DNA of 32,000 nt, taken from assembly GCF_000012905.2 (NCBI RefSeq), contig NC_007493.2:1020001-1052000 (forward strand), given 5' to 3'. Positions 15,895 to 31,415 of the stretch are shown here, one piece after another. Source of the stretch: Cereibacter sphaeroides 2.4.1 (GTDB lineage Bacteria; Pseudomonadota; Alphaproteobacteria; Rhodobacterales; Rhodobacteraceae). Both the position numbers and the translations under genes were made by a program. A model generated the notes under the pieces. It was not told the origin of the DNA and ran no database searches. It saw nothing but the letters and a program-made list of their open reading frames with translations. How positions within the stretch are numbered: the first letter of the stretch is position 1; the number at the start of each line of letters is the position of its first letter.

Positions 15895-15985
15895 GGCTCT
15901 CGGCTCTCGGCTCTCGGCTCTCGGCTCTCGGCTCTCGGCTCTCGGCTCTCGGCTCTCGGCTCTCGGCTCTCGGCTCTCAGCTCTC
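15895..15985. repeat. Heptanucleotide microsatellite (GGCTCTC) x 12 perfect copies plus 1 variant copy (AGCTCTC)
   Basis: Counted directly. Perfect 7-bp units begin at 15895 and repeat every 7 bp to 15978. The 13th unit (15979-15985) starts with A instead of G. Confidence 0.97.
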
Positions 15986-17704
15986 GTCGGGATGCGCGAG
16001 TCCCAGCACGCGGCTGAGTTCGGCCGACATCCGGTCGGGGGTGACGGGCTTGGCCACATAGCCGGTGAGGCCCGCGCCGAGATACATGTCGCGCTGTTCC
16101 TCGGTCGCATCGGCGGTCATGGCCACGACCGGCAGGCTCGCCGCGGGGCCGGGCATCGCCCGGATCCGCCGCAGGGTCTCGAGCCCGTCCATGCCGGGCA
16201 TGTTCATGTCGAGCAGCACCAGATCCACCGGCTCGCGTTCGAGGAGGGCCAGCGCCTCGGGCCCGCTCTGGGCCTCGATCGTGCGGACGCCGAAGAGCTG
16301 GAGATAGGCGGCCGCGACCAGCCGGTTCGTGGATATGTCATCGACCACGAGGACGCGCCGTCCGCCGAGCCGGTGTTCGGCCCGCGGTGCGGCGGGCGCG
16401 GAGGCGGGCGCCTCGACGGTCTGGAGCGCGATGGTCAGCGCGAACCGCGCGCCCGGCCCCGGCTGCGCCAGAAGCCGCAGATCGCCGCCCATCTGCCGCG
16501 CGAGCGCCCGGCTGATCGAGAGGCCGAGCCCGTTGCCCGCAAGGCGCCCGTTGCCCGTGGGCATGAACGGATCGAAGATGGCTTCCGCCTCTTCCCGAAG
16601 GATCCCGTCGCCCGTGTCGCTCACCTCGATGCGGAGAAGCGGGCGCGGCCCCGCGCCCTCGATCCGGGCCTCGACCCGGATGCGGCCCTCCTGCGTGTGC
16701 TTCAGCGCGTTCGACAGGAGGTTCGACAGGCACTGGCGCAGGCGCTGCGGATCGAGCCGCGCGCGCTTCGGCAGATCGCCCAGCACGAGCTCGAGCGCCA
16801 CGCCCGTCTCCTCGACCAGAGGGCGGAACAGCTCGACGCTGGCCACGATCTCCTCGCGCGGCGAGACGGTCTGCGGCCGCACCGGCATCCGGCCCTGCTG
16901 GACCGCCGACATGTCGAGGATGTCGTCGAGCATCGTCGAAAGCCCCTCGGCCGAGCGGATCAGCACGCCCAGACGGTCGCGGCTGACCGGATCGGACGCG
17001 CCCCGCAGTTCGGCATGGCCGATGCCGAGGATCGCATTGAGGGGCGTGCGCAGCTCGTGGCTCATCTGCGCGAGGAACCGGTCCTTCGTCGCATTGGCCG
17101 CGAGCGCCTCGGCCCGCCCGGCGGCCGCCTCGCGATGCAGCCGGTAGGTCATGAGGATGGCCGCCAGCGAATAGGCCAGCGCCACCAGCGCGCAGAGGGT
17201 GGTGAGCCCCAGCGCCGCAAGATCGTGCCGCGGCAGCCAGTAGAGCGTGTTCGAGGCCAGCGTGAAGAGCGCGATGGCGCTGCCGCCCGCCAGTCCCATC
17301 GGCAGGTGGATCGACCGCACCGTCGCCACATGCATCATCGAGCAGACCATGAACCCGATGGCGAAGGCCTTCACATAGGGGTTCTCGAGATGCCACATCA
17401 GCGCGGGCGGCGTCACGAAGGCGCACTGGAGCAGGAAGGCGGAGAGGATGTAGGCGGGGTGGCGCCACCTTTCGGTGATCCGCGCCGGGCAGGCGTCGAG
17501 GTGGTTCGTGACGATCTCGCCCAGGGCCGAGAGCAGGACGCAGGTCCAGACGATCCAGCCCGGCAGGAAGAGCATCGAGACGGCGAAGGCCAGCGCCATG
17601 GCGGGGAAGCGCACGAAGGCCTCGCGCCGCAGGATCGCGGCCTGACGGGCGACCTCCTGCTGGAGGGCCGCGGGCGGAAGGGGGGCGAGCCAGGGCGGGC
17701 GCAT
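15977..17704 (-). CDS. Hybrid sensor histidine kinase / response regulator with a membrane-embedded N-terminal sensor
   Basis: About 6 N-terminal TM helices. H-box FLAQMSHELRTPLNAILG, N/G boxes (LSNALKHT, DTGDGI, GNGLGLSISRALA) and a C-terminal receiver (VLVVDD...DLVLLDMNMPGMDG...GYVAKP). I preferred the ATG at 17704 over the TTG at 17710. Confidence 0.9.
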   Translation of the reverse strand: MRPPWLAPLPPAALQQEVARQAAILRREAFVRFPAMALAFAVSMLFLPGWIVWTCVLLSALGEIVTNHLDACPARITERWRHPAYILSAFLLQCAFVTPPALMWHLENPYVKAFAIGFMVCSMMHVATVRSIHLPMGLAGGSAIALFTLASNTLYWLPRHDLAALGLTTLCALVALAYSLAAILMTYRLHREAAAGRAEALAANATKDRFLAQMSHELRTPLNAILGIGHAELRGASDPVSRDRLGVLIRSAEGLSTMLDDILDMSAVQQGRMPVRPQTVSPREEIVASVELFRPLVEETGVALELVLGDLPKRARLDPQRLRQCLSNLLSNALKHTQEGRIRVEARIEGAGPRPLLRIEVSDTGDGILREEAEAIFDPFMPTGNGRLAGNGLGLSISRALARQMGGDLRLLAQPGPGARFALTIALQTVEAPASAPAAPRAEHRLGGRRVLVVDDISTNRLVAAAYLQLFGVRTIEAQSGPEALALLEREPVDLVLLDMNMPGMDGLETLRRIRAMPGPAASLPVVAMTADATEEQRDMYLGAGLTGYVAKPVTPDRMSAELSRVLGLAHPDES

Positions 17705-17753
17705 GGGCAAATCCGGCAGGGGGAGAGGCGGGGGCCGGTGGCCCCGGCCGGCA

Positions 17754-19282: not shown

Positions 19283-20179
19283 ATGAGCACTTACACCAGC
19301 CTTCCCGCTCCGAGTCCCGAACAGGGCCTCAACCGCTACATGCAGGAAATCCGCAAGTTCCCCCTGCTGGAGCCCGAAGAGGAATACATGCTGGCCAAGC
19401 GCTGGGTCGACCATCAGGACAATCGGGCCGCGCACAAGCTGGTCACCTCGCACCTGCGCCTCGCGGCCAAGATCGCCATGGGCTACCGGGGCTACGGCCT
19501 GCCGCAGGCCGAGGTGATCTCCGAGGCGAACGTGGGCCTGATGCAGGCGGTGAAGCGCTTCGACCCCGAGAAGGGCTTCCGGCTGGCCACCTATGCGATG
19601 TGGTGGATCCGCGCCTCGATCCAGGAATATATCCTGCGGTCCTGGAGCCTCGTGAAGCTCGGCACCACCTCGGCGCAGAAGAAGCTGTTCTTCAACCTGC
19701 GCAAGGCCAAGGCCAAGCTCGGCGCGCTCGAGGAGGGCGACCTGCGGCCCGAGAACGTGGCCCAGATCGCCAAGGATCTCGGCGTGTCCGAGACCGAGGT
19801 CATCGACATGAACCGCCGCCTGTCGGGGTCGGACGCGTCGCTGAACGCGACCATCGGCTCGGACGGCGAGGGCTCGACCCAGTGGCAGGACTGGCTCGAG
19901 GATGAAGACAGCGACCAGGCGGCGGATTATGCCGAGCGCGACGAGCTCGAGATCCGGCGCGAGCTTCTGGCGCAGTCGATGTCGGTCCTGAACGACCGCG
20001 AGAAGGACATTCTCGTGCAGCGCCGCCTGACCGACGATCCGGTGACGCTCGAGGAGCTGTCCGAGGGCTACGGCGTCAGCCGCGAGCGGATCCGCCAGAT
20101 CGAGGTCCGCGCCTTCGAGAAGCTTCAGGCCAAGATGCGCGAGCTGGCGCGGTCGAAGGGCATGACGATCCCCGCCTGA
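19283..20179 (+). CDS. rpoH: RNA polymerase sigma-32 (heat-shock sigma factor)
   Basis: Regions 2-4 of the sigma-70 family and the diagnostic RpoH box QKKLFFNLRKAK. Also LVTSHLRLAAKIAMGYRGYGL and YGVSRERIRQIE. An AGAGGGGG RBS lies upstream. Confidence 0.95.
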   Translation: MSTYTSLPAPSPEQGLNRYMQEIRKFPLLEPEEEYMLAKRWVDHQDNRAAHKLVTSHLRLAAKIAMGYRGYGLPQAEVISEANVGLMQAVKRFDPEKGFRLATYAMWWIRASIQEYILRSWSLVKLGTTSAQKKLFFNLRKAKAKLGALEEGDLRPENVAQIAKDLGVSETEVIDMNRRLSGSDASLNATIGSDGEGSTQWQDWLEDEDSDQAADYAERDELEIRRELLAQSMSVLNDREKDILVQRRLTDDPVTLEELSEGYGVSRERIRQIEVRAFEKLQAKMRELARSKGMTIPA

Positions 20180-20595: not shown

Positions 20596-20782
20596 GGTCC
20601 GGGCCGCCGAGGAGGCAGCCCCCGGCAGGGTCGGCACGGTGTCGTTCCGGGCCGACGAGGAGGCAGTCCCCGGCAGGTGGGCGGCTTGTGTCGGTCCGGG
20701 GTGCCGGCGAGGAAGCTCCGGCAGGCGCTCCCGGTGTCAGTCCGGGGCGCCGAGAAGGAAGCTCACCTGCAGGCTCGCGTTC
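20596..20782. repeat. Tandem array of four 44-49-nt repeat units, each able to form a GC-rich hairpin with GAGGAGG/GAGGAAG in the loop (CCUCCUC on the minus strand); candidate sRNA array
   Basis: Units are 20596-20643, 20644-20692, 20693-20738 and a degenerate one at 20739-20782. Units 1 and 2 are identical at 31 of the first 34 positions. The shared core is GTCCGGG..GCCG.(A/C)GAGGA(G/A)GC...CCGGCAGG...GTGTC. Confidence 0.85.
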
Positions 20783-21552
20783 AGCCGGTTGAAGGCGGCG
20801 CGGTCCTTCAGATCCGCCGCGATCAGACGCTCGGAGACGCGACGGCCCAGCTCGGGATGAAGGGCGCCCAGCACCAGCGCGGCCTTGCCCAGACGGAAGG
20901 GCGCCACGCAGTTGATGAGGTAGAACCGCTCGGCGAGCTCGGCCTTCAGCTCTTCGGTCACCGGATGATCGGGCAGGCTCTCGGCCCGGAAGGGCCGGTC
21001 GATGGTCCGCACGAGCCGCGTCAGCGCGCCGCCGTCGGCCGGATCGGTGGTCACCACACGCCCCTCGATGGCAAGCTTCTTCAGGAGCCGGTCGAGAAAC
21101 GGGCCGCGGTCGGCCATCCTGTGCAGCACGGAATGGAGATAGATCACGTCATAGCCCGTCTCGCGGAAGGCGCCGGACATCGGATCGGCCTCGATCAGCC
21201 GCGCCGTCCGACCCTCGCCGAGCCGGACCTTCAGCGCCTCGAGCTCTGCCGGATCGGCCGAGACCGCGTGATAGGTGCGGGCCGTGTCCGCCAGCCACGG
21301 GCTCAGCGGCGAGCCCCCGCCGATCTCCAGCACCTTCTTGCCGGACAGATCGCCGAGCCACTCCTTGTGTACCTCGTAGAGCTGCGCCTCGGCCTCGGGG
21401 CCGATGGCCGAGAGGGCCCGGGTGCGGATCCGCCGCCAGAGGTCGGAGGCGACGCCCGCCCCCCGGCCGAGCGCGGTGCCGAGGGGGCCGTCGCCCGACC
21501 CTTTCGGCTTCAGCCGGTCGCTCTGGTTCTGTGGCATGGCGGAATGACCCAT
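20737..21552 (-). CDS. Class I SAM-dependent methyltransferase
   Basis: Motif I VLEIGGGS plus downstream YDVIYLHSVLHRM and a Rossmann-type pattern. GGAG lies 7 nt upstream of the ATG at 21552. The last ~14 codons are encoded by repeat unit 4. Confidence 0.72.
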   Translation of the reverse strand: MGHSAMPQNQSDRLKPKGSGDGPLGTALGRGAGVASDLWRRIRTRALSAIGPEAEAQLYEVHKEWLGDLSGKKVLEIGGGSPLSPWLADTARTYHAVSADPAELEALKVRLGEGRTARLIEADPMSGAFRETGYDVIYLHSVLHRMADRGPFLDRLLKKLAIEGRVVTTDPADGGALTRLVRTIDRPFRAESLPDHPVTEELKAELAERFYLINCVAPFRLGKAALVLGALHPELGRRVSERLIAADLKDRAAFNRLNASLQVSFLLGAPD

Positions 21553-21562
21553 AAGAAAACTC

Positions 21563-21595
21563 CAAACGAAAATAGTGCGGGGCCAGGCCCCGCAC
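21563..21595 (-). terminator. Rho-independent terminator of pepF
   Basis: The minus strand reads GTGCGGGGCCTGGCCCCGCAC followed by TATTTTCGTTT, starting 27 nt after the pepF stop. Confidence 0.65.
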
Positions 21596-21621
21596 AGGAT
21601 GCTAACAATCGGTCCCGGGCG

Positions 21622-23442
21622 TCAATCGTCCATGGCTTCGAGCTCGTCGATGAAGCCTGCGATCATGCTCAACCCCTTGTCCCAGAAGGTCGGGTCGCTC
21701 GCATCGAGGCCGAAGGGGGCGAGAAGCTCCTTGTGATGCTTGGAGCCGCCCGCCGAGAGCATCTCGAAATACTTGTCCTGAAAGCCCGGAGTGCCCTCGG
21801 CATAGACGGCATAGAGCGCATTCACCAGCCCGTCGCCGAAGGCATAGGCATAGACGTAGAAGGGCGAATGGACGAAATGCGGAACGTAGGACCAGAAGGT
21901 CTCGTAGCCCTCCATGAACTCGAACGCATCGCCGAGGCTTTCGGCCTGCACGCTCATCCAGAGGGCATTGATGTCCTCGGGCGTGAGCTCGCCCTGCCGG
22001 CGCGCCTCGTGCAGCTTGCACTCGAAATCGTAGAAGGCGATCTGGCGCACGACCGTGTTGATCATGTCCTCGACCTTGCCGGCGAGCAGCGTCTTGCGCT
22101 CGGCCGGGGTTCTGGCCGCATCGAGGAGCCGGCGGAAGGTCAGCATCTCGCCGAAGACGCTCGCCGTCTCGGCCAGCGTGAGCGGCGTCGAGGAGAGGAG
22201 TTCGCCCTGTCCCGCCGCCAGCACCTGATGGACGCCGTGGCCGAGCTCATGCGCGAGCGTCATCACGTCGCGCGGCTTGCCGAGATAGTTCAGCATCACA
22301 TAGGGATGGACGGTCGTCACGGTCGGATGGGCGAAGGCGCCGGGCGCCTTGCCGGGCTTCACGCCCGCATCGATCCAGCCCTTTTCGAAGAAGGGTTTCG
22401 CGATCTCGGCCATCCGCGGATCGAAGGCGGAATAGGCCTCCATCACCGTCGACTGCGCCTCGTCCCAGCCCACGAGCCGCGGCGTTTCGGTGGGCAGCGG
22501 GGCGTTGCGGTCCCAGACCTGCAGTTTGTCGAGGCCCAGCCATTTGGCCTTCAGCCGGTAGTAGCGGTGCGAGAGCTTGGGATAGGCCGCGACCACCGCA
22601 TTGCGCAGCGCCTCGACCACTTCGGGCTCGACATGGTTCGCGAGGTGCCGGCCGTATTGCGGCGTGGGCATCTTGCGCCACCGGTCGTGGATCTCCTTCT
22701 CCTTCGCGAGCGTGTTGTGCACCCGCGCGAAGAGCTTGATGTTGCGGCCGAAGACCTCGGCCAGAGCGCGGGCGGCGGCCTCGCGGCGCGGCCGCTCGGG
22801 GTCGGTCAGCAGGTTCAGGGTGGATTCGAGGTTCAGCTCCTCGCCCTCGAGCGTGAAGGTGAGGCCCGCCATCGTCTCGTCGAAGAGACGGTTCCAGGCG
22901 GCGGCGCCGACGGTCGATTCGTCGTGGAGGAAGCGTTCCAGCTCGTCCGAAAGCTGGTGCGGGCGCATGGCGCGCATCCGGTCGAAGACGGGCTTGTAGC
23001 GGGCGAGCGCCGCGCTCTCGGCCAGACGGGCTTCGAGATGGGCATCCTCCAGCCGGTTGAACTCGAGGCTGAAGAAGACGAGCGCGGTCGTGTAGTCGGT
23101 CACCTTGTCCTGCGCGTCGGCCATGAACTTGGCGCGCTCGCTGTCCATCGTGTTCTGGTAATAGCGCAGGCCGGCGTAGGACATGAGCCGCCCGGCCACG
23201 ATGTCGATCTTCTCGTAGGCTTCGATGCAGGCGAGGAGGCCCGCCGCATCGAGGCTCGCAAGCTTGCCCTCGTAGCTGGCGGCGAAGCCTGCACAGGCCT
23301 CCTTGAGCCAGGCCATGTCGTCGCGGAATTCCGGACCGTCCGGGGTGGGATAGAGGTCGCGCAGATCCCAGTCGGGCAGGTTCCCGAGGCCCCCGGCGCT
23401 GGCGTTGGCGTCGAAGACCGGGCGGGGCAGGGGCAGCGTCAT
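21622..23442 (-). CDS. pepF: M3-family oligoendopeptidase F
   Basis: 606 aa with the zinc motif HELGHGVH and a downstream E ligand region (LAETASVFGE). Architecture is PepF-like. An AAGGAG RBS is present. Confidence 0.9.
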   Translation of the reverse strand: MTLPLPRPVFDANASAGGLGNLPDWDLRDLYPTPDGPEFRDDMAWLKEACAGFAASYEGKLASLDAAGLLACIEAYEKIDIVAGRLMSYAGLRYYQNTMDSERAKFMADAQDKVTDYTTALVFFSLEFNRLEDAHLEARLAESAALARYKPVFDRMRAMRPHQLSDELERFLHDESTVGAAAWNRLFDETMAGLTFTLEGEELNLESTLNLLTDPERPRREAAARALAEVFGRNIKLFARVHNTLAKEKEIHDRWRKMPTPQYGRHLANHVEPEVVEALRNAVVAAYPKLSHRYYRLKAKWLGLDKLQVWDRNAPLPTETPRLVGWDEAQSTVMEAYSAFDPRMAEIAKPFFEKGWIDAGVKPGKAPGAFAHPTVTTVHPYVMLNYLGKPRDVMTLAHELGHGVHQVLAAGQGELLSSTPLTLAETASVFGEMLTFRRLLDAARTPAERKTLLAGKVEDMINTVVRQIAFYDFECKLHEARRQGELTPEDINALWMSVQAESLGDAFEFMEGYETFWSYVPHFVHSPFYVYAYAFGDGLVNALYAVYAEGTPGFQDKYFEMLSAGGSKHHKELLAPFGLDASDPTFWDKGLSMIAGFIDELEAMDD

Positions 23443-23613
23443 GGGAACTCCTTACATTCTATGACTGGCAAGGTGGCGTGGCGGGCGCGGAAGTTCAAGC
23501 GGGGCGGGGATCTCCCGTCCGCCTTCGGGCGCTGCCGGCGCGCGTCCGGGCGCCCAAAGTCTGCGGGCCTGCCGTCGCGCACCAGGGCATCCGGCTCCGA
23601 TCGGGCGACCCTC

Positions 23614-25215
23614 TCATGGGGCCGCCCCGCCCGTCGCTGCGAGCAGTTCGCGCAGGCTTTCGAGCGTGTCGATCTCGGCTGCGGGTTTGTCCTTCCGCCA
23701 GCGCACCATGCGCGGGAAGCGGAGCGCGATGCCGGACTTGTGGCGGGGGCTGGCCTGAATGCCCTCGAAGGCCAGCTCGAAGACCAGCTCGGGCGGGACG
23801 CGCCGGACGGGTCCGAACCGCTCCAGCGTGTTCTTCCGCACCCAGTCGGTGATCTGGCGGAACTCGGCATCGGTGAGGCCGGAATAGGCCTTGGTGAAGG
23901 GCACGAGATCGTCGCCGTCGCGCACGCCGAAGGTGAAGTCGGTGAAGAGGGTGGCGCGGCGGCCCGCGCCCTGCTGGGCATAGAGCATGACCGCATCGAC
24001 CGTATAGGGATCGAGCTTCCATTTCCACCAGTCGCCGCGCTTGCGGCCGACGAAATAGGGCGAGGAGGCGCGCTTCAGCATCAGCCCCTCGGCGATCTTC
24101 TCGCGCGCCGTGGCGCGGATCTCGCCCAGCGTCTCCCAGTCGTCGAAGGCCACCAGCGGCGAGGGCGAGATCGGCACGCCCGGGGGCAGGGCTGACAGCA
24201 CCGCCTCGAGCCGGGCGCGACGGTGCGCGAGCGGGGCCGCGCGCAGATCCTCGCCGTTTTCCTCCAGAAGATCGTAGGCCAGCAGATGCGCGGGCGCCTC
24301 GGCGAGGATCTTCTTTGGCACGGTCAGGCGGCCGATCCGCTTCTGGAGCGCGGCGAAGGGCAGGGGACCCTCGCCGCCCCAGGCCAGCACCTCGGCATCG
24401 ATCACGAGACCGGGGGGCAGGAAATCCCGGAGCGGAGCGAGATCCGGGAAACGGTCCGTCACCAGTTCCTCGCCGCGCGACCAGAGTGCGAAGGCGCCCG
24501 CGCGGTTCACGAGCTGGCCGCGGATGCCATCCCATTTCCATTCCGCAAGCCAGTCGGCGGGATCTCCCAGCGCCGCCACCTCCTCGACCGGCGAGGCGAG
24601 CGCGAACGGATAGGGCTTCGAGGCATCGGCCTCGGGATCGTGTGCGCCGATCAGCGTCTCGAAGCCGATCCGGCTGGGCTTCCAGTCGCCCATCAGCCGG
24701 TGCGCCAGCACCGCCTCGTCGACACCGGTCGCCTGCGCCAGCGCGCGCGTCATCAGCCCCTGGCTCACGCCCATGCGGAAACCGCCGGTGATGAGCTTGT
24801 TGAAGAGGAACCGCTCGGGCGTGCTGAGCCTGTCCCAGGCGTCGAGGATGGCGGCCCGGCGCACCTCGGCCGGGCGGCCTGTGAGGGAAACCAGCTCGCG
24901 CATCCACCCGTCGAGCGTGCGGTCGCTGGTCTGGCTAGGCTCGGGCAGGAGGAGCGAGATCGTCTCGGCCAGATCGCCCACGATTGGATGGACCTCCTCG
25001 GCGAGCCAGACCGGCAGGCCCGATGCCTCGGCCGCCCAGCTGCGCAGTTCGGTCGTGTTCACCGCCCGCTTGGGGCGGCGGCCCGAGAGGAGGCCGATGG
25101 TCCAGACCCGGTCCTCCTCGGGCGCGGTGCGGAAATAGTCGGCGAGCGCCGCCACCTTCGCGGAGGTGCGCGTCGTGCGGTCGAGCAGGTCGAAGAGGGC
25201 CGCGAACCGCTTCAT
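23614..25215 (-). CDS. ATP-dependent DNA ligase (ligase-associated DNA damage response type)
   Basis: Adenylation motif I AEWKWDGIRGQ, later nucleotidyltransferase motifs (EGLMLKR, WWKWK) and a C-terminal OB domain. ATGA overlap with the upstream exonuclease gene. Confidence 0.9.
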   Translation of the reverse strand: MKRFAALFDLLDRTTRTSAKVAALADYFRTAPEEDRVWTIGLLSGRRPKRAVNTTELRSWAAEASGLPVWLAEEVHPIVGDLAETISLLLPEPSQTSDRTLDGWMRELVSLTGRPAEVRRAAILDAWDRLSTPERFLFNKLITGGFRMGVSQGLMTRALAQATGVDEAVLAHRLMGDWKPSRIGFETLIGAHDPEADASKPYPFALASPVEEVAALGDPADWLAEWKWDGIRGQLVNRAGAFALWSRGEELVTDRFPDLAPLRDFLPPGLVIDAEVLAWGGEGPLPFAALQKRIGRLTVPKKILAEAPAHLLAYDLLEENGEDLRAAPLAHRRARLEAVLSALPPGVPISPSPLVAFDDWETLGEIRATAREKIAEGLMLKRASSPYFVGRKRGDWWKWKLDPYTVDAVMLYAQQGAGRRATLFTDFTFGVRDGDDLVPFTKAYSGLTDAEFRQITDWVRKNTLERFGPVRRVPPELVFELAFEGIQASPRHKSGIALRFPRMVRWRKDKPAAEIDTLESLRELLAATGGAAP

Positions 25216-26363
25216 GTCGGGGCGTCCCCCGCTGCCGGGCGCCTGCGCTTGCCCTCGGCGGGCTCCGACCCGTCCGTGGCCGGATCGGCTGCCGTCCCGT
25301 CCTCCTCGGCCACGGCCGCCACGCCTGCGTCGGGTTCGATCAGCGGACCCGCCTCGGCTTCGGCGGCATCGAGGCTCTCGCCCTCATATTCCGTGGCGAC
25401 GATGCCCGCTTCGAACCCCTGATCCTCGAGCCAGCGGCGGAAGATGGCGGTGTAGCCGTGGGTGACGAAGATCCGCTCGGCCCCCGTGGCGCGGATCGCG
25501 GCATTGAGCCCGTCCCAGTCGGCATGGTCGGACATGACGAAGCCCTGCGCGAGGCCGCGGCGGCGGCGGACGCCGCGCAGCGCCATCCAGCCCGAGGCGA
25601 AAGCCTCGGCCGAGGGGCCGAAGCGCGTGGCCCAGGGGGTGCCGAGTGCCGAGGGCGGCGCGATCACCAGTGCCCCCGGGTGCGACGTGCCGTCGATGCC
25701 GGGCGCCACATAGGTGGTGGGCGGCAGCGCCAGCCCCTGCTCGCGCAGGACGGCGGTGGTGGCTTCCACCGCGCCATGGGTCAGGATCGGGCCGATGGAG
25801 AGATCGGCCGAGACCAGAAGCCGCTGCGCCTTGCCGAGCGTATAGGCGCCCACGATCGACGTGCGCCCCTCGGCGGCATTCGCCGCCCACCAGCGGTTCA
25901 GCTGGGCCGCAAGCTCGGCCTGCGGCTTCCAGCGGAAGACCGGCAGGCCGAAGGTACATTCCGAGATGAAGCTGTGGCAGGCCACCGGCTCGAACGGCTC
26001 CGACAGCCCGTCCTCGGCCACCTTGTAATCGCCCGAGACCACCCAGACCTCGCCGTCCCGCTCGACACGGATCTGCGCCGAGCCCGGCACATGGCCCGCC
26101 GGATGGAACGAGACCGTGACGCCACCGATCCGCCGGGTCTCGCCGTAGCGGATCGTCTTGAGGCGGATGTCGCCCAGCCGGTAGCGGATCACCGGGGCGG
26201 AGCCCTCCGTCGCCAGATAGGCGCCGTGGCCGGATCGGGCATGGTCCGAATGGCCGTGGGTGATGAGTGCACGCTCCACCGGCCGCCACGGGTCAATGTA
26301 GAAATCGCCCGCGGGGCAGAAGATCCCGCGGTCGGTGAAGGTCAGAAGGGGGTCGCGTGCCAT
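25212..26363 (-). CDS. Ligase-associated MBL-fold (beta-CASP-like) exonuclease
   Basis: Metallo-beta-lactamase motif ITHGHSDHAR and a later SDHADW, with an acidic C-terminal tail. I chose the ATG at 26363 (MARDPLLTFTDRG). It is translationally coupled to the ligase. Confidence 0.82.
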   Translation of the reverse strand: MARDPLLTFTDRGIFCPAGDFYIDPWRPVERALITHGHSDHARSGHGAYLATEGSAPVIRYRLGDIRLKTIRYGETRRIGGVTVSFHPAGHVPGSAQIRVERDGEVWVVSGDYKVAEDGLSEPFEPVACHSFISECTFGLPVFRWKPQAELAAQLNRWWAANAAEGRTSIVGAYTLGKAQRLLVSADLSIGPILTHGAVEATTAVLREQGLALPPTTYVAPGIDGTSHPGALVIAPPSALGTPWATRFGPSAEAFASGWMALRGVRRRRGLAQGFVMSDHADWDGLNAAIRATGAERIFVTHGYTAIFRRWLEDQGFEAGIVATEYEGESLDAAEAEAGPLIEPDAGVAAVAEEDGTAADPATDGSEPAEGKRRRPAAGDAPT

Positions 26364-26532
26364 GGAAGGAAGGATAGCGCAGCGCGAACCGCCCGCCAGC
26401 GGGGCGCAATGCACAATCTTTAGGCGGTCGAGCGGGATGTGACGGATGTCTCGCCATCGGCTCTTCCCGGCCGCAAAGCCCGCTGATTAAACTGAAGGCA
26501 CGGCGGCGCGAGAACGGTCGGGGGCGAGCAAC

Positions 26533-27951
26533 GTGGCGGTGACCACCTATTTCAACGAAATGTATGAGAAGGGCCGGGTCCGCCCGCATTACCGCCAGCT
26601 CGAGGACTGGACAAAGGCCATGCCGGCCGAGCTGCGCGAGATGAAGCAGGCCGAGGCCGAGGCGCTGTTCCGGCGGATCGGCATCACCTTCGCCGTCTAT
26701 GGCGAGGGCGGAGACCCAGACCGGCTGATCCCCTTCGACATGTTCCCCCGTGTCTTCACCGCGCGTGAATGGTCGCGGCTCGAACGCGGGATCAAGCAGC
26801 GCGCGCGGGCGCTCAACGCCTTCCTCTGCGATGTCTACGGACGGGGCGAGATCGTGCGTGCCGGCCGCATTCCGGCCCGACTGGTCTACCGCAACGCGGC
26901 CTACGAGAAATCCGTGGTGGGCTTCACCCCGCCGAAGGGGGTCTATTCCCATGTGGTCGGGATCGACCTCGTGCGGACCGGAGCGGATGAGTTCTTCGTG
27001 CTCGAGGACAATTGCCGCACGCCCTCGGGCGTCTCCTACATGCTCGAGAACCGCGAGATCATGATGCGGATGTTTCCCGAGCTCTTCCGCGAGAACCGGA
27101 TCGAGCCGGTGGACAGCTATCCCGAGAAGCTGCGCCGCACGCTGGCCTCGGTCGCACCCGCGAAATGCTCGAGCGATCCGACCGTGGTGCTGCTCACGCC
27201 CGGCCATTTCAACTCGGCCTATTACGAGCACAGCTTCCTTGCCGACCTGATGGGGGTGGAGCTGGTCGAGGGCGCGGATCTCTTCGTCGAGGGCGAGTTT
27301 CTCTACATGCGCACGACCGAGGGGCCGAAGCGGGTGGATGTGCTCTATCGCCGGATCGACGATGCCTTCATCGACCCGCTCTGCTTCCGGCCGGATTCGA
27401 TGCTGGGCGTGCCGGGGCTGATGGATGTCTATCGCTCGGGCGGGGTCACGATCTGCTCCGCCCCCGGCGCGGGCGTGGCCGACGACAAGGCGGTCTACAC
27501 CTTCGTGCCCGAGATGGTGCGCTTCTACCTCGGCGAGGAGCCGCTCCTGAACAACGTGCCCACCTGGCAATGCGGCAAGGAGGAGGATCTGAAACATGTG
27601 CTGTCGAACCTCTCCGATCTGGTGGTGAAGGAGGTGCATGGCTCGGGCGGCTACGGGATGCTGGTCGGGCCGAAATCCTCGAAGGACCAGATCGCGGCCT
27701 TCCGCGCCCGGATCGAGGCCGATCCCGACAATTACATCGCCCAGCCCACGCTCGCGCTCTCCACCACGCCCACCTTCGTGAACGAGGGCATCGCCCCGCG
27801 CCACGTCGACCTGCGCCCCTATTGCCTCGTCGGCGAGCGCATCGAACTCGTCCCGGGAGGCCTCACCCGCGTGGCGCTCACCGAGGGCTCGCTCGTGGTG
27901 AACTCGTCGCAGGGCGGGGGCGTCAAGGACACCTGGGTTCTGGCGGAGTGA
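26533..27951 (+). CDS. Circularly permuted type-2 ATP-grasp protein (Anbu-operon amidoligase)
   Basis: YFNEMY...VRPHY...FRRIGITFAVYGE...LIPFDMFPR...ALNAFLCDVY...CRTPSGVSYMLENR matches my recollection of the CP_ATPgrasp_2 family. The start is GTG 26533; GTG 26539 or ATG 26560 are alternatives. Confidence 0.82.
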   Translation: MAVTTYFNEMYEKGRVRPHYRQLEDWTKAMPAELREMKQAEAEALFRRIGITFAVYGEGGDPDRLIPFDMFPRVFTAREWSRLERGIKQRARALNAFLCDVYGRGEIVRAGRIPARLVYRNAAYEKSVVGFTPPKGVYSHVVGIDLVRTGADEFFVLEDNCRTPSGVSYMLENREIMMRMFPELFRENRIEPVDSYPEKLRRTLASVAPAKCSSDPTVVLLTPGHFNSAYYEHSFLADLMGVELVEGADLFVEGEFLYMRTTEGPKRVDVLYRRIDDAFIDPLCFRPDSMLGVPGLMDVYRSGGVTICSAPGAGVADDKAVYTFVPEMVRFYLGEEPLLNNVPTWQCGKEEDLKHVLSNLSDLVVKEVHGSGGYGMLVGPKSSKDQIAAFRARIEADPDNYIAQPTLALSTTPTFVNEGIAPRHVDLRPYCLVGERIELVPGGLTRVALTEGSLVVNSSQGGGVKDTWVLAE

Positions 27952-27958
27952 TCGCGAC

Positions 27959-28909
27959 ATGCTGAGCCGGACCGCCGACAACCTCTACTGGATCGCCCGC
28001 TACATGGAACGCGCCGAGACGATGGCGCGGCTGCTGGAGGTGGGGGCGCGCATGTCGCTCCTGCCCTCGGCCCATGGCTATCGCAACGAGTGGGACAGCC
28101 TTCTGCAGGCCTCGGGCACCGCCGGGGGCTTTGCGCAGAAATACCGCCATGCCCAGCAGCGCGACATCGAGAGCTATCTCTTCTTCGATCTCGACAATCC
28201 CTCCTCGGTCGCCTCCTGCATCGGGCGGGCGCGCGAGAATGCGCGGATCGTGCGCACGGCGCTGACGGCGCAGGTGTGGGACGCGATCAACACCGCCTAT
28301 CAGGAGCTGCGCGCGCTGGAAAAGACGCCGCGCGACCGGCTGGAGCTGTCGCGGCTGATCGACTGGACCATGAACAAGGCCGCCATCATCCGCGGCTCGA
28401 TCGACACGACGCAGCTGCGCAACGACGGCTGGGACTTCCTGAACCTCGGCTATTACCTCGAACGGTCCGACAATACGGCCCGGCTGATGGATGTGAAGTA
28501 TTACGTCCTGCTGCCGCGGGTCGAGTTCGTGGGCTCGGGGATGGACAATTACCAGTGGGCGACGCTGCTGCGCGCGACCTCGGCGCACCGGGCCTTCCAC
28601 TGGGCCTATGGCGGCGAGGTGACGGCGCGCAAGATCGCCGATTTCCTGATCCTGAACCCGCAGTGCCCGCGCTCGCTCACCTCCTGCATCGACGGGATCT
28701 GCGGTCATCTGAAACGGCTCGAGAAGGCCTACGGCCGCCCCTCGCGGCCGCGCGAGGTGGCCGAGAAGCTCGCGGCCGAGCTGGAAGCGCTCAGTGTCGA
28801 GGACATCATCGAGGAGGGGCTGCACGAGTTTCTCAGCCGGTTCATCCTCGAGGCCGCGAACCTCTCCGGCGTGATCTTCGAAAGCTATCTCAGCGGAGAC
28901 GTGCGATGA
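27959..28909 (+). CDS. Alpha-E domain protein
   Basis: The N-terminus MLSRTADNLYWIARYMERAE is the hallmark of the alpha-E (DUF403) family. It lies 7 nt after the ATP-grasp gene. Confidence 0.8.
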   Translation: MLSRTADNLYWIARYMERAETMARLLEVGARMSLLPSAHGYRNEWDSLLQASGTAGGFAQKYRHAQQRDIESYLFFDLDNPSSVASCIGRARENARIVRTALTAQVWDAINTAYQELRALEKTPRDRLELSRLIDWTMNKAAIIRGSIDTTQLRNDGWDFLNLGYYLERSDNTARLMDVKYYVLLPRVEFVGSGMDNYQWATLLRATSAHRAFHWAYGGEVTARKIADFLILNPQCPRSLTSCIDGICGHLKRLEKAYGRPSRPREVAEKLAAELEALSVEDIIEEGLHEFLSRFILEAANLSGVIFESYLSGDVR

Positions 28910-29715
28910 TCCTCACCGTCGATCATGTGACCTGCTACCGCTACAACCGGCCGGCCCGCGCGCTGGTGCAGAGCCACCGGCTGACGCCCTCGACCTGCGC
29001 GGGCCAGCGCGTGCTGGAATGGGTCGTCACCGTCACCGACGGGATCGCGGGCGGATCGTTCCGCGACGGCGCGGGCGACTGGATCCAGGGCTGGACCGTG
29101 CCGGGGCCGGTGAGCGAGGTGACGGTCGCGGTCCGGGGCAGGGTCGAGACCTCGGATCAGGCAGGCGTGCTGCGCGGGCACCGCGAACTGACCGCGCCCG
29201 ACTGCTACCTGCGCTCGACCGCCGTCACCAGGGCGGATCCGGCGCTGGTGGCGCTTGCGGCGAAGGCCGACGGGATCGAGCAGCCGCTCGACCGGGCGCA
29301 CCGGCTGGCCGATCTCGTGGCCGAGGCCATCCTCTACGAGCCGGGTGTGACCGAAGCGCACACCACCGCGGCCGAGGCGCTGAAGCTCGGGCGCGGCGTG
29401 TGCCAGGATCATGCCCATGCGCTGATCGCGGCGGCGCGGGAGGCGGGCCTGCCCGCGCGCTACGTCTCGGGCTATCTCTTCACCGATGCAGAGACCGCGG
29501 ATCAGGAAGCGGCCCATGCCTGGGCGGAAGTCTGGGTGCGGGGCCTGGGCTGGGTCGGGTTCGACCCCGCCAACCGCTGCTGCCCGGACGAGCGCTATAT
29601 CCGCCTCGGCTCGGGGCTCGACGCGCAGGATGCGGCGCCGATCCGCGGCATCGCTCGGGGGCCGGGCGTCGAACGTCTGGAAGTGCAGGTTGCAGTGCAG
29701 GCGGTGCAGCAATAG
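28906..29715 (+). CDS. Transglutaminase-like cysteine peptidase family protein
   Basis: N-terminal domain MILTVDHVTCYRY. Transglutaminase core Cys (GRGVCQDHAH), His (AHAWAEVWV) and Asp (GFDPAN). ATGA overlap with the alpha-E gene. Only the 3' part of track ORF 28090..29715 is real. Confidence 0.85.
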   Translation: MILTVDHVTCYRYNRPARALVQSHRLTPSTCAGQRVLEWVVTVTDGIAGGSFRDGAGDWIQGWTVPGPVSEVTVAVRGRVETSDQAGVLRGHRELTAPDCYLRSTAVTRADPALVALAAKADGIEQPLDRAHRLADLVAEAILYEPGVTEAHTTAAEALKLGRGVCQDHAHALIAAAREAGLPARYVSGYLFTDAETADQEAAHAWAEVWVRGLGWVGFDPANRCCPDERYIRLGSGLDAQDAAPIRGIARGPGVERLEVQVAVQAVQQ

Positions 29716-29746
29716 GGTCCGGCGGAACCTTACGGAAGCGTGACCG

Positions 29747-30472
29747 ATGACCTATTGCGTGGGCCTGCTGCTCAACGAGGGAATGGTGCTCCTGTCGGAC
29801 ACCCGCACGAACGCGGGCTTCGACAATATCGCCATCTACAAGAAGATGTTCACCTTCGAGGAGCCCGGCGAGCGCATCGTGGCGATCCTGACGGCGGGCA
29901 GCCTCTCGGTCACGCAGACCACCATCGCCCGGCTGAAGGAGGCGATCCACGATCCCGACGCGACCGAGGAAAGCTCGATCCTGAAGGCGCCCACCATGCT
30001 CATGGTGGCCGAGATCATCGGCAACATGCTGGCGCAGGTGCGGCTCGACATCGACGAGAAGCTGTCGGCGATGAAGCAGAGCGCGTCGGCCAGCATGATC
30101 GTCGCGGGCCAGCGCCGGGGCGGCGAGATGCGGATGTTCCTCATCTACCCCGAGGGCAACTTCATCGAGGCGACCGAGGACACGCCCTTCCTGCAGATCG
30201 GCGAGCACAAATACGGCAAGCCGATCCTCGACCGGGTGGTGAAGCCCGAGACCTCGCTGGCCGACGCGCAGAAGGCCGTGCTCCTGTCGATGGATTCGAC
30301 CCTGCGCTCGAACCTGTCGGTGGGAATGCCGCTCGACCTTGCGGTGATCGAGCGGGACGGCTGCTGCATCGCCTCGCGCCGCCGGATCGAGGCGGGAGAC
30401 GAGAATTTCCGCGCCATGTCCGAGGCCTGGTCGCGCGCGCTGCGCGAGGGTTTCTCGCAGATCAGGATCTGA
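29747..30472 (+). CDS. Anbu (ancestral beta-subunit) proteasome-like Ntn peptidase
   Basis: Begins MTYCVGLLL, so Thr follows the initiator Met directly. Asp17 lies in LLSDTRTN and Lys31/32 in IYKKM, the proteasome beta-type Thr/Asp/Lys arrangement. It is the fourth gene after ATP-grasp, alpha-E and transglutaminase. Confidence 0.85.
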   Translation: MTYCVGLLLNEGMVLLSDTRTNAGFDNIAIYKKMFTFEEPGERIVAILTAGSLSVTQTTIARLKEAIHDPDATEESSILKAPTMLMVAEIIGNMLAQVRLDIDEKLSAMKQSASASMIVAGQRRGGEMRMFLIYPEGNFIEATEDTPFLQIGEHKYGKPILDRVVKPETSLADAQKAVLLSMDSTLRSNLSVGMPLDLAVIERDGCCIASRRRIEAGDENFRAMSEAWSRALREGFSQIRI

Positions 30473-31415
30473 CGGCGTCCGGGTCCGCGCTCGCCCGGAA
30501 CAGCGCCGCGGCGGCGTCGAAGAAGGCGTCGCGCACCTCGGGGCGGTCCATCATCACCTCGTGCTCGGCCCCGGGCACGATCTGCAGTTCGCCCCGGCCC
30601 CAGCCCTCCATCCGGCGCTGGATCTCCTCGAGATCGACCACCTTCTCGGCCGAGCCCACGATGCAGAGCGCGGGCAGATCCGGCGCGGGCAGCCGCTTCA
30701 GCCGCGCCGTCTCCTCGAAGGCCGCGCGCAGCCAGTCGAGGCTCGGGCCGGCAAGACCCAGTTCCGGCGCCTGCACCAGCTGCTCCTGCATCCAGGCGAA
30801 CATCTCCGGGTCGCGGGTGAGGACGTTCGTGTCGAAGGCGGCGGTGGCGACATAGCTGCGCGTGCCGGTGCCGGGGACATAGCGGTGCCCGAGCCCCGTC
30901 GCGCGGGCGAGCGCCCCGAGTGCCGCCGCTACGATCCGCAGCGCGGCATGGACGCGGATGCCCCACATCGGCGCCGAGAAGCAGGCGGCGCGCACGGGCA
31001 GCCCCTCGTGCAGCGCGCGGAGCCCGATGCAGCCGCCCATGGAATGGGCCAGAAGATGGAAGGGCTCGGGCAGCCCCTGCGCGCGCAGCGCCGCGACGAA
31101 GGCCGTCACATCCTGCTGATAGGAGGCGAAATCGTCGACATGGCCCACGAGCGGATCGCGGAGCGACCGGTCCGACAGCCCCTGTCCGCGCCAGTCGAGG
31201 GTGGCTGAGGCAAAGCCGCGCCGGCGCAGCGCCTCGGCCGCGGGGCCGTATTTCTCGGCATATTCGGTGCGGCCCGAGAAGATGAGGACGGTTCCCGCCG
31301 CCCCCTCGGGCCAGACCACGGTGCGCAGCCGCACACCGTCGCCGGTGCGGATCCAGTCCGCATGCGCTCTGGCCGGTCCGCGGGCGAGGGCGGCGTGAAA
31401 AGGTGCGCCGCTCAA
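30462..31415 (-). CDS. Alpha/beta hydrolase (lysophospholipase/monoglyceride-lipase-like)
   Basis: Nucleophile elbow LLAHSMGG, plus the GRTEYAEKY and DWRGQGLS patterns. I prefer the TTG start at 31415, which overlaps the SCP2 stop (TTGA). The longer track ORF (to 31757) overlaps the SCP2 gene and is Arg/Gly-rich. Confidence 0.78.
   Translation of the reverse strand: MSGAPFHAALARGPARAHADWIRTGDGVRLRTVVWPEGAAGTVLIFSGRTEYAEKYGPAAEALRRRGFASATLDWRGQGLSDRSLRDPLVGHVDDFASYQQDVTAFVAALRAQGLPEPFHLLAHSMGGCIGLRALHEGLPVRAACFSAPMWGIRVHAALRIVAAALGALARATGLGHRYVPGTGTRSYVATAAFDTNVLTRDPEMFAWMQEQLVQAPELGLAGPSLDWLRAAFEETARLKRLPAPDLPALCIVGSAEKVVDLEEIQRRMEGWGRGELQIVPGAEHEVMMDRPEVRDAFFDAAAALFRASADPDAVRS

Follow-up and report, generated by a model that had tools for sequence, protein, structure and literature searches.

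The four plus-strand genes at 26533-30472 of the window (the whole 32,000-nucleotide stretch of DNA analyzed here) are almost certainly RSP_2415-2418 on chromosome 1 of Rhodobacter (Cereibacter) sphaeroides, its canonical Anbu-1 operon. The identification rests on matches to families and solved structures, conserved catalytic residues in all four products, the locus tags, and 100% identity of the Anbu product to the public R. sphaeroides protein. The locus is an already annotated copy of a published operon type and an ordinary member of its family. What is new as a lead lies solely in the upstream DNA, which suggests that the Anbu operon is controlled by nitrogen limitation.

Layout and conservation of the operon

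The open reading frames and their junction sequences, together with the upstream elements, give the following arrangement.

26410-26426, no strand assigned: NtrC-like 17-bp dyad, TGCACAATCTTTAGGCG
26463-26492, + strand: promoter-like element (-35-like CTTCCC, 18-nt spacer, -10-like TTAAAC)
26533-27951, + strand: ATP-grasp gene RSP_2415, GTG start, 472 aa (alternative GTG at 26539)
27959-28909, + strand: Alpha-E gene RSP_2416, 316 aa
28906-29715, + strand: transglutaminase-like gene RSP_2417, 269 aa (Cys peptidase or transamidase)
29747-30472, + strand: Anbu gene RSP_2418, subtype 1, 241 aa (proteasome-beta-like Thr1 N-terminal nucleophile hydrolase)

The tight linkage of the genes claimed in a preliminary description holds at each junction: a 7-nt gap (27952-27958) separates the ATP-grasp and Alpha-E genes, an ATGA overlap (28906-28909, -4 nt) joins the Alpha-E and transglutaminase-like genes, and 31 nt (29716-29746) precede Anbu. 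Neither a terminator nor a promoter stands out inside the operon, and no terminator-like site stands out after the genes. Third-position G+C is high in all four reading frames (e.g. 0.89, 0.90, and 0.95), as is typical of real genes here. About 60 of 80 related loci (Anbu identity 44-98%) have the four genes in this order, which, with tight or overlapping junctions, spans alpha-, beta-, and gamma-proteobacterial loci. Retention of the order in dozens of genomes indicates that the adjacency is not due to chance, and the short junctions, the conserved order, and the lack of evident internal signals argue indirectly for transcription as one unit.

Public gene calls and most relatives place the ATP-grasp start two codons downstream, at GTG 26539 (470 aa); because C. 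ovatus lacks the second GTG, 26533 is still a possible start. On the other side, the divergent gene has its ATG at 26363, leaving a spacer of 169 bp (26364-26532), as described earlier, or 175 bp if translation starts at GTG 26539. The DNA ligase/exonuclease pair that had been placed across this spacer is not a conserved context: many relatives have pepF in its place, and the neighbor here is, by comparison of the loci, a lineage-specific insert.

The gene order of the canonical operon was published in 2008-2009 (Valas & Bourne 2008; Iyer et al. 2009), and ATP-grasp, Alpha-E, transglutaminase-like, and Anbu has been described as the predominant arrangement. Structures of Anbu followed in 2017-2018 (Fuchs et al. 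2017; Piasecka et al. 2018; Vielberg et al. 2018); as late as 2021, a paper states that its function is not known. This literature agrees with the earlier account of an operon recognized computationally, with structures at hand and a function unresolved. PMC11236759 confirms both the locus tag and the annotation of RSP_2417. None of the four proteins matches a PADLOC anti-phage defence profile.

The Anbu operons of P. aeruginosa, Yersinia bercovieri, and Hyphomicrobium sp. MC1 contain the same four families in the same order, and their Anbu proteins share with RSP_2418 the subtype (1), the Met-Thr start, Thr1, Asp17, Lys32, and Gly50, and the C-terminal helix region. The coding parts do not differ from published Anbu operons except at residue 30 of the S1 pocket, which is Tyr in RSP_2418 and Phe in P. 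aeruginosa Anbu. The control region is what sets this locus apart, with a Rhodobacteraceae-type dyad and a putative sigma-70-like promoter and no sigma-54 promoter.

Upstream DNA and the case for nitrogen control

The dyad has two mismatches to TGCNCAA-N3-TTGNGCA and is centered about 47 nt upstream of the -35-like hexamer; no other site with two or fewer mismatches occurs in the whole 32-kb window. Sites with three or fewer mismatches are found in 42 of 65 orthologous upstream regions, versus a mean of 4.9 in shuffles, and most are centered 113-124 nt before the start codon. At most one mismatch is seen at 15 sites within the upstream windows (6.4 kb in total) and at a single site in the remaining 1.04 Mb. 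The distance from the dyad to the ATP-grasp start is the same with either divergent neighbor, exonuclease or pepF. Compared with the Rhodobacterales NtrC consensus from the literature, YGCMNNNNTTNNTRGCA, the dyad is similar in its 17-bp span and, at the level of sequence, only in the outer half-sites; the inner positions differ. The copy at 26410-26426 is degenerate, its right half reading AGGCG, not GGGCA.

Downstream of the dyad, the -35-like CTTCCC (26463-26468) and -10-like TTAAAC (26487-26492) predict a transcription start at about 26499. The pattern CTT[TC][TC]C-N17/18-[CT]TA has 53 matches on both strands of 2.07 Mb of related loci, 28 of them within 90 nt before the ATP-grasp start, and the element at 26463-26492 is the sole match in the window. 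In the upstream alignment, the promoter blocks are conserved and the spacer sequence is variable. Judged from these alignments and counts, the NtrC-like dyad and the promoter-like motif, of sigma-70 type, are features that Rhodobacteraceae have in common in front of the ATP-grasp gene.

We propose that a sigma-70-type promoter near 26463-26492 would drive a single transcript of all four genes, that a regulator bound to the NtrC-like dyad would activate this transcription, and that activation would occur when fixed nitrogen is scarce. Several lines of evidence point to such control. First, the dyad and promoter-like motif are strongly enriched before the ATP-grasp gene and sit there at a fixed position. 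Second, beta-proteobacterial orthologues have sigma-54 promoters upstream (e.g. TGGCACACCGGTTGCT), with enteric-type NtrC sites about 90 nt further upstream in two of the loci (L076 and L078). Third, the motifs fit a report that nitrogen limitation induces Anbu in Pseudomonas putida. Fourth, the sigma-54 regulons predicted for alpha-, beta-, and gamma-Proteobacteria are reported to be enriched in COG3484. Fifth, NtrC of Rhodobacterales has no GAFTGA loop and acts as an activator of sigma-70 RNA polymerase. Counting against nitrogen control, expression of P. aeruginosa Anbu has been reported to be constant over many conditions; for RSP_2415-2418 under nitrogen limitation, we found no published expression data. 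We give the promoter and dyad step, taken as a whole, an even chance.

NtrC-activated sigma-70 promoters in R. capsulatus and Paracoccus denitrificans include those of nifA1, glnB, and nasT. As at those promoters, an upstream 17-bp TGC...GCA dyad here precedes a promoter of a type other than sigma-54. Only one clear dyad is present here, however, and the inner positions of this putative site depart from the quoted consensus.

The same promoter-like blocks could instead place the operon in the RpoH heat and singlet-oxygen stress response of R. sphaeroides. They resemble TTG-less RpoHI/RpoHII promoters, such as CTTTCC...CCATAT at RSP_2649, and Thioclava relatives carry CTTTTC-N17-CTAGAG; moreover, the divergent neighbors belong to RpoH regulons (RSP_2414 to that of RpoHII, pepF RSP_2412 to that of RpoHI), and rpoHI itself lies 7 kb away. 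Nevertheless, RSP_2415-2418 are absent from published RpoHI/RpoHII regulon tables and promoter lists, including the text and supplementary tables of Dufour et al. 2012 with their differentially expressed and ChIP-bound genes, where both RSP_2412 and RSP_2414 do appear. With a matrix derived from published RpoHI/RpoHII promoters, the site scores 6.4, below the 10th percentile of known sites (median 12.3). Stress control of this kind seems very unlikely.

The four proteins and their proposed chemistry

Profile searches and comparison with solved structures bear out all four family assignments made previously. The ATP-grasp protein matches Pfam CP_ATPgrasp_2 (E 1e-167; 558.2 bits versus a cut-off of 32) and CP_ATPgrasp_1 (E 1.7e-149; 497.8 bits versus 23.1), aligns over residues 3-471 with PDB 3n6x (E 4.7e-197), and is at least 97% conserved at 172 of 472 positions among 66 orthologues; on these matches, RSP_2415 is a circularly permuted ATP-grasp amidoligase. 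The Alpha-E protein matches the Pfam profile of that name (PF04168) over its full length, positions 1-294 of 294 (E 7.7e-93; 311.8 bits versus a cut-off of 20.8), and carries two Glu-Arg motifs, E17-R18 and E168-R169, at least 97% conserved in 70 orthologues. Its AlphaFold2 model is all-helical (pLDDT 84.6, pTM 0.85), and no solved relative was found by sequence or fold (best Foldseek E-value 0.24). Its relatives fall into about 6,000 clusters at 50% identity, and no ATP-grasp/Alpha-E fusion occurs among the top 150 Alpha-E representatives. The transglutaminase-like protein contains Transglut_core (E 1.8e-26) and Bact_transglu_N (E 2e-16), domain matches of 92.9 and 60.9 bits, and aligns with PDB 3isr (E 6.6e-12), including a Cys166-His204-Asp220 triad that is at least 97% conserved in 67 orthologues.

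RSP_2418 matches Pfam Proteasome (E 9.6e-7) and, much more strongly, the PDB Anbu chains 5loy (E 2.3e-75), 5nyj (4.6e-72), 5lox (3.7e-56), and 5nyw (2.1e-54). These alignments run end to end, from residue 1 or 2 to 235-239 of 241, and the C-terminal region aligns up to the end of the solved chains; the public R. sphaeroides Anbu protein is 100% identical. As stated in the preliminary description, the protein begins MTYCVG and has Asp17 and Lys31/Lys32. There is no propeptide, and Thr directly follows the initiator Met. Met1 and Thr2 (the latter being Thr1 of the mature numbering) and D18, K33, and G51 (Met-inclusive numbering for Asp17, Lys32, and the oxyanion Gly50) are at least 97% conserved in 81 orthologues, among which Thr20, Leu52, and Thr55 are also conserved. 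Removal of the initiator Met to expose Thr1 has been demonstrated for P. aeruginosa Anbu only. The S1 pocket consists of T20, Y30, T48, L52, and T55; the Anbu-1 consensus protein 5loy agrees at positions 20, 48, 52, and 55 and has Phe at 30. The corresponding pocket of P. aeruginosa Anbu, also Anbu-1, is T20, F30, T48, L52, and S55. Anbu-2 pockets are basic, and in the sequence alignment RSP_2418 has no Arg at the Anbu-2 positions.

From these families we infer a chemistry of ATP-dependent amide ligation combined with Cys and Thr hydrolases. The ATP-grasp enzyme, probably with Alpha-E, would use ATP to make an acyl-phosphate and join a carboxylate to an amine, giving a peptide or protein substrate an amide or isopeptide bond. 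Amide or peptide bonds would then be cut by two hydrolases, the transglutaminase-like enzyme with its Cys-His-Asp triad and Anbu with its Thr1, so that the module might mark and degrade peptides or proteins and recycle their nitrogen, although we consider this hydrolysis and recycling step rather doubtful. The chemistry is supported by two observations on homologues: the Y. bercovieri ATP-grasp protein hydrolyzes ATP, freeing phosphate, and inhibitor binding by P. aeruginosa Anbu depends on Thr1.

Two known systems offer comparisons. HslVU shares with Anbu the homologous Thr1 Ntn-hydrolase fold in stacked beta-type rings. Unlike HslVU, Anbu has no AAA+ partner gene, its family forms open split rings where HslV forms closed hexamers, and hslV is in the RpoHI heat-shock regulon list, whereas Anbu is not. 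R. sphaeroides also encodes HslV (RSP_1531). In the Pup-proteasome system of actinobacteria, substrates are marked by an amide ligase that depends on ATP, the mark is reversed or prepared by an amidase of a related type, and degradation falls to a proteasome-type Thr protease. The proposed Anbu model would follow a similar logic of ligase, hydrolase, and Thr protease. The Pup ligase family is that of the glutamine-synthetase-like PafA/Dop, whereas the Anbu operon ligase is a circularly permuted ATP-grasp. The Pup system also has a small tag protein of its own and an AAA+ unfoldase; the Anbu operon encodes neither, and no tag gene fits the gaps.

This last point bears on a different use of the same enzymes, a synthetase/amidase cycle in which the ATP-grasp enzyme, acting much as in the synthesis of glutathione or glutathionylspermidine, would build a small metabolite (a peptide or an amide) and the two hydrolases would degrade or trim it. 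The 169-bp spacer and the 7-nt and 31-nt gaps are too short for a small tag-protein gene, and the sole homologue of the ATP-grasp protein with a solved structure, 3n6x, entered the PDB as a putative glutathionylspermidine synthase. Proteasome substrates are not cut by Anbu. Epoxomicin and MG132 react with Thr1 of homologous Anbu; in characterized homologues activity has been limited to such covalent inhibitor binding, and purified Anbu proteins have no peptidase activity with standard substrates. The Y. bercovieri structure also has a small S1 pocket with S2/S3 sites occluded. Against such a cycle, homologues assemble as dodecameric open split rings or helices held by the C-terminal helix H5, and Fuchs et al. 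read two features as favoring processive proteolysis: the many identical active sites of the split-ring dodecamer and the divergence between the Anbu-1 and Anbu-2 S1 pockets. Moreover, no product has ever been identified. We consider a metabolite cycle somewhat unlikely.

It is also conceivable that Anbu acts alone, as an ATP-independent protease for damaged proteins resembling an uncapped 20S core, with the other three genes merely co-located. Fuchs et al. favor a protease role and note that the other operon proteins occur even where Anbu is absent; such trios are the same first-three-gene module to which Anbu is added here as a fourth. Anbu stands alone, with no trio within 7 kb, in 8-9 Rhodobacteraceae loci; unrelated genes (DUF2927, an MFS transporter, a 5'-nucleotidase) separate the transglutaminase-like gene from Anbu in four loci; and the transglutaminase-like gene is dropped or moved in some beta-proteobacterial loci. 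Work on homologues did not detect a stable complex of the four proteins. The solo and split arrangements imply that coupling to the ligase is not obligatory, and across the loci compared, Anbu is separable from the other three genes. A purely stand-alone role nevertheless seems unlikely: alpha-, beta-, and gamma-proteobacterial loci retain the four-gene order with its tight or overlapping junctions, and the dyad characteristic of the operon is missing from the solo copies. Operon and solo Anbu may thus be regulated and used differently.

In our favored reading, which as a whole we hold tentatively, at a little less than an even chance, R. sphaeroides would use this canonical Anbu-1 operon, under nitrogen control, to ligate and then cleave amides.

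The canonical Anbu operon and its surroundings

It is nearly certain that this locus is a canonical Anbu operon. An ORF listing and a reading of the sequence at the junctions bore out the preliminary description of four same-strand genes at 26533–30472: the first two stand 7 nt apart, the second and third overlap by ATGA, and 31 nt separate the third from the fourth. A spacer of 169 bp leads to a divergent gene whose ATG lies at 26363.

Genes of the operon, from the ORF listing and junction reading
26533–27951, plus strand: ATP-grasp gene, 472 aa, GTG start
27959–28909, plus strand: Alpha-E gene, 316 aa
28906–29715, plus strand: transglutaminase-like gene, 269 aa
29747–30472, plus strand: Anbu gene, 241 aa

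The Anbu protein matches a Rhodobacter (Cereibacter) sphaeroides protein on 259 contigs at 100% identity, and public gene calls on identical contigs give the same operon boundaries except at the ATP-grasp start, placed at GTG 26539, two codons downstream of 26533 (470 aa). The N terminus of most ATP-grasp relatives, MT(T)YFNEM, is compatible with the 26539 start; because Cereibacter ovatus lacks the second GTG, however, the start is ambiguous between these positions. No convincing terminator was seen downstream of Anbu, and an Rfam search of the operon and its leader matched no RNA element.

The locus tags follow from published landmarks. A published cloning primer for rpoHI (RSP_2410) matches exactly at 19283; published tables list RSP_2412 as pepF and RSP_2414 as a beta-CASP “mRNA 3-end processing factor,” corresponding to the ligase-associated exonuclease of the window; and a transglutaminase-like enzyme at 1,049,374 on chromosome 1 carries the tag RSP_2417 (PMC11236759). 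Because the neighboring tags and that of RSP_2417 match, the four genes are RSP_2415–2418, annotated already in this model organism.

Other features of the window
10759–15176, plus strand: metal-chelate uptake cluster (TonB-dependent receptor, periplasmic binding protein, FecCD permease, ABC ATPase)
15977–17710, minus strand: hybrid histidine kinase with receiver domain, adjoining the uptake cluster
19283–20179, plus strand: rpoHI, heat-shock sigma factor gene
20677–24195, plus strand: open frame of 1172 codons, running antisense to both pepF and the ligase gene
23614–26363, minus strand: DNA-damage module (ATP-dependent ligase and exonuclease)
30462–30472: 11-nt overlap of the 3′ ends of the Anbu gene and a convergent alpha/beta-hydrolase gene
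31412–31415: TTGA overlap of the apparent alpha/beta-hydrolase start (TTG 31415, minus strand) with the SCP2 stop codon

The 1172-codon frame failed the coding filter on codon-position G+C and looks like a high-G+C artifact rather than a gene. Downstream of the operon, the convergent alpha/beta-hydrolase and SCP2 genes (317 and 94 aa in public calls) are conserved within Rhodobacteraceae, and their TTGA start/stop overlap suggests that translation of these two minus-strand genes is coupled. There is no terminator-like structure between Anbu and the hydrolase gene. The two genes also abut in several related genera (for example, the comparison loci L001, L011, L013, and L028).

Published papers on Anbu operons describe exactly the arrangement found here, and they credit Valas and Bourne (2008) and Iyer et al. 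(2009) with noting the gene combination. In P. aeruginosa Anbu, the Met is removed and Thr1 reacts with epoxomicin and MG132; standard proteasome substrates are cleaved by no Anbu assayed; the ATP-grasp protein of Y. bercovieri liberates phosphate from ATP; and the four operon proteins have not been seen to form a stable complex. The preliminary description agrees with these papers on the function, and searches of the literature up to 2026 found no report that settles it. Its interpretation was thus right, and the system is of a known kind. The copy here is canonical and annotated, earlier work on the same operon in Pseudomonas and Yersinia did not succeed, and RSP_2415–2418 do not represent a new type of system. 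Of the relatives of the proteasome, Anbu is the least understood: structures exist, yet the literature names no substrate, partner, or physiological role.

Protein families and gene context

All four proposed family assignments held in Pfam profile searches, which place product 1 in CP_ATPgrasp_2 (E = 1e-167) and CP_ATPgrasp_1 (1.7e-149), product 2 in Alpha-E (7.7e-93), product 3 in Bact_transglu_N (2e-16) and Transglut_core (1.8e-26), and product 4 in Proteasome (9.6e-7). Among solved structures, the Anbu protein matches Anbu entries only, end to end: the designed Anbu-1 consensus 5loy (E = 2.3e-75), 5nyj from Hyphomicrobium (4.6e-72), 5lox from P. aeruginosa (3.7e-56), and 5nyw from Y. bercovieri (2.1e-54). 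The ATP-grasp protein matches 3n6x (E = 4.7e-197) and no other solved relative even at E up to 10, and the transglutaminase-like protein matches 3isr (6.6e-12).

Orthologues from the 80 related loci (Anbu identity 44–98%) were aligned, and residues present in at least 97% of sequences were counted as conserved. In Anbu, Thr1, Asp17, Lys32, and Gly50 reach this level, so that the Thr1/Asp17/Lys equivalents expected from the first reading are indeed present, as do Thr20, Leu52, and Thr55 of the S1 pocket. The full pocket (T20, Y30, T48, L52, T55), set against that of P. aeruginosa Anbu (T20, F30, T48, L52, S55), is of the Anbu-1 type and not the basic Anbu-2 type. Also conserved are Cys166, His204, and Asp220 of the transglutaminase-like protein, two Glu–Arg pairs in Alpha-E (E17–R18 and E168–R169), and 172 of the 472 positions of the ATP-grasp protein.

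Alpha-E itself has no solved relative found by sequence. Its AlphaFold2 model is confident and all-helical (pLDDT 84.6, pTM 0.85), and a Foldseek search of the model against the PDB returned no significant match (best E = 0.24, TM below 0.3) and so gives no hint on function. The family comprises ∼6,000 clusters at 50% identity (6,021 representatives); the best 150 of these are all stand-alone, none being fused to an ATP-grasp domain, so no fusion supports an Alpha-E/ligase complex. Membership in an anti-phage defense system was considered and rejected, PADLOC finding no match.

The four-gene order is retained in ∼60 of the 80 related loci. The divergence from a DNA ligase/exonuclease pair, which the preliminary description had also noted, is real in the window but does not hold as conserved context, the pair being absent from many relatives; in Thioclava, Tabrizicola, Pseudorhodobacter antarcticus, and others, the immediate divergent neighbor of the ATP-grasp gene is pepF. 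The ligase/exonuclease pair has the look of a lineage-specific insert. Only a part of the Rhodobacteraceae have this module in the interval from pepF to the Anbu operon, and it, compared with L008, L009, L014, and other loci, behaves as an inserted two-gene cassette.

In eight to nine loci, none of the other three genes lies within 7 kb of Anbu, which can thus be separated from this trio. These solo loci support a second rival to the reading developed below, namely that Anbu is functionally independent of the trio, which we regard as improbable. In the solo loci (L021, L033, L044, L047, L050, L053, L059, L062, and L066), the NtrC-like dyad described below is absent upstream. A terminator-like element (CTGGGTGGGGCAAGGGCGCG...CGCGCCTTTT) just upstream of solo Anbu is conserved in L050, L053, L059, L062, and L066; the idea that it marks a tmRNA was rejected, as ARAGORN and Rfam found nothing there. 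Four loci carry DUF2927, MFS transporter, and 5′-nucleotidase genes between the transglutaminase-like gene and Anbu; these are unrelated to the operon and were rejected as accessory components. In several beta-proteobacterial loci, the transglutaminase-like gene is missing or placed after Anbu: L069, L071, L073, L076, L077, and L078 have none between Alpha-E and Anbu, and L073 and L076 have a distant copy downstream of Anbu instead.

Elements upstream of the ATP-grasp gene

Alignment of the 260 nt before the ATP-grasp start reveals two conserved blocks in Rhodobacteraceae, a dyad and a promoter-like motif.

Elements in the window
23471–23499, minus strand: published RpoHI promoter of pepF (RSP_2412), between the ligase gene and pepF
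26372–26399, minus strand: published RpoHII-dependent promoter of RSP_2414, CTGGCGGGCGGTTCGCGCTGCGCTATCC
26410–26426: NtrC-like dyad, TGCACAATCTTTAGGCG
26463–26492: promoter-like motif

The promoter-like motif, CTT(T/C)(C/T)C-N17/18-(C/T)TA, lies 21–51 nt upstream of the start codon. Of the 65 upstream regions, 33 contain a looser form of it (3.1 on average after shuffling), and the pattern has 53 matches in 2.07 Mb of related sequence, both strands counted, 28 of them within the 90-nt windows before the ATP-grasp start; its sole match in the window is at 26463–26492.

Because both divergent neighbors (RSP_2414 and pepF) belong to RpoH regulons and rpoHI is 7 kb distant, we built an RpoH matrix from 120 published RpoHI/RpoHII promoters and considered, as a minor rival, that the operon is read from an RpoH-type promoter. 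The matrix recovers the published RSP_2414 site (26399–26372, minus strand; score 9.7) and the pepF site (23499–23471, minus strand; 11.9), the latter among the top-scoring sites of the window. The Anbu-side site, however, scores only 6.4 (rank 180 of 191,814 positions) against a median of 12.3 for known RpoH sites, and RSP_2415–2418 are absent from the published RpoHI/RpoHII regulon lists; HslV (RSP_1531) is listed in the RpoHI regulon. The −10 element of the RSP_2414 promoter ends only 9 nt before ATG 26363, so its mRNA would have almost no leader, unless the true start codon is further downstream.

A sigma-54 promoter in the window was rejected: GGCACG at ∼26497 is followed by a GC one base too early, and a relaxed sigma-54 pattern has no match in the spacer upstream of the ATP-grasp gene. 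Beta-proteobacterial orthologues have clear sigma-54 promoters, such as TGGCACACCGGTTGCT and TGGCATACCGGTTGCT. The pattern is matched by L069, L073, L076, and L078, and L071 is similar by eye.

The dyad spans 17 bp, TGC(A/C)CAA-N3-TTG(G/T)GCA, and is mostly centered 113–124 nt before the ATP-grasp start. With up to three mismatches it occurs in 42 of 65 upstream regions (mean of 4.9 in shuffles), and with up to one mismatch at 15 sites in 6.4 kb of upstream windows versus one in the other 1.04 Mb. The copy in the window, degenerate in its right half, is the only one there with up to two mismatches. The dyad belongs to the Anbu operon, since its distance to the ATP-grasp start is constant whether the divergent neighbor is the exonuclease gene or pepF.

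Enteric NtrC recognizes the consensus TGCACCA-N3-TGGTGCA, and the dyad departs from it at just two positions, the symmetric 6 and 12. The Rhodobacterales NtrC consensus, YGCMNNNNTTNNTRGCA, which mutation of the nasT site of Paracoccus denitrificans confirmed, has the same outer half-sites as the dyad and spans the same 17 bp, whereas the inner positions differ. The GAFTGA loop is missing from Rhodobacterales NtrC, which activates RNA polymerase carrying sigma-70; this fits a dyad placed before a promoter of non-sigma-54 type. In two beta-proteobacterial loci, L076 and L078, enteric-type NtrC sites (TGCACTAAAATGGTGCG and TGCCCCACAATGGTGCA) lie ∼90 nt upstream of the sigma-54 promoter. A comparative study found COG3484 (proteasome-type protease) enriched in predicted sigma-54 regulons, and Anbu is reported to be induced in nitrogen-limited P. 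putida. The likeness of the dyad, the NtrC type, the beta-proteobacterial sites, this enrichment, and this induction together suggest that the conserved signal is nitrogen limitation and that the lineages have exchanged promoter class.

A possible role in nitrogen recycling

These considerations lead us to a tentative reading, to which we would give rather less than an even chance. The Anbu operon would be a conserved member of the proteobacterial NtrC regulon, and its promoter class would have been swapped with the NtrC type: the promoter is sigma-54 in beta-proteobacteria, two loci of which have enteric-type NtrC sites, and of sigma-70 type in Rhodobacteraceae. Its task would be nitrogen recycling, peptides or proteins being marked in an ATP-dependent manner and hydrolyzed. 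The mechanism that we favor has three steps. First, when nitrogen is limiting, activation from the bound dyad would drive transcription from the promoter at 26463–26492, a step that we judge about evenly balanced. Second, the ATP-grasp enzyme, probably with Alpha-E, would make an acyl-phosphate and ligate an amine to a carboxylate on a peptide or protein. Third, and more doubtfully, the Cys-His-Asp enzyme and the Thr1 hydrolase may cut amide bonds, the outcome being that marked peptides or proteins are degraded and their nitrogen is recycled. The main rival to this nitrogen-recycling scheme is that the operon encodes a synthetase/amidase cycle acting on a small metabolite, which is possible but in our estimate unlikely.

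The predicted nitrogen/NtrC control is the one useful new handle beyond the preliminary description; should the prediction fail, the locus would be one more annotated copy. The dyad and the promoter make induction of the operon by nitrogen limitation via NtrC a testable prediction in a genetically tractable organism. Inducing conditions were missing from the earlier biochemistry, in which the proteins, once purified, neither showed activity nor formed complexes. If the operon does belong to the NtrC regulon, R. sphaeroides would offer defined inducing conditions for finding the long-missing substrate.
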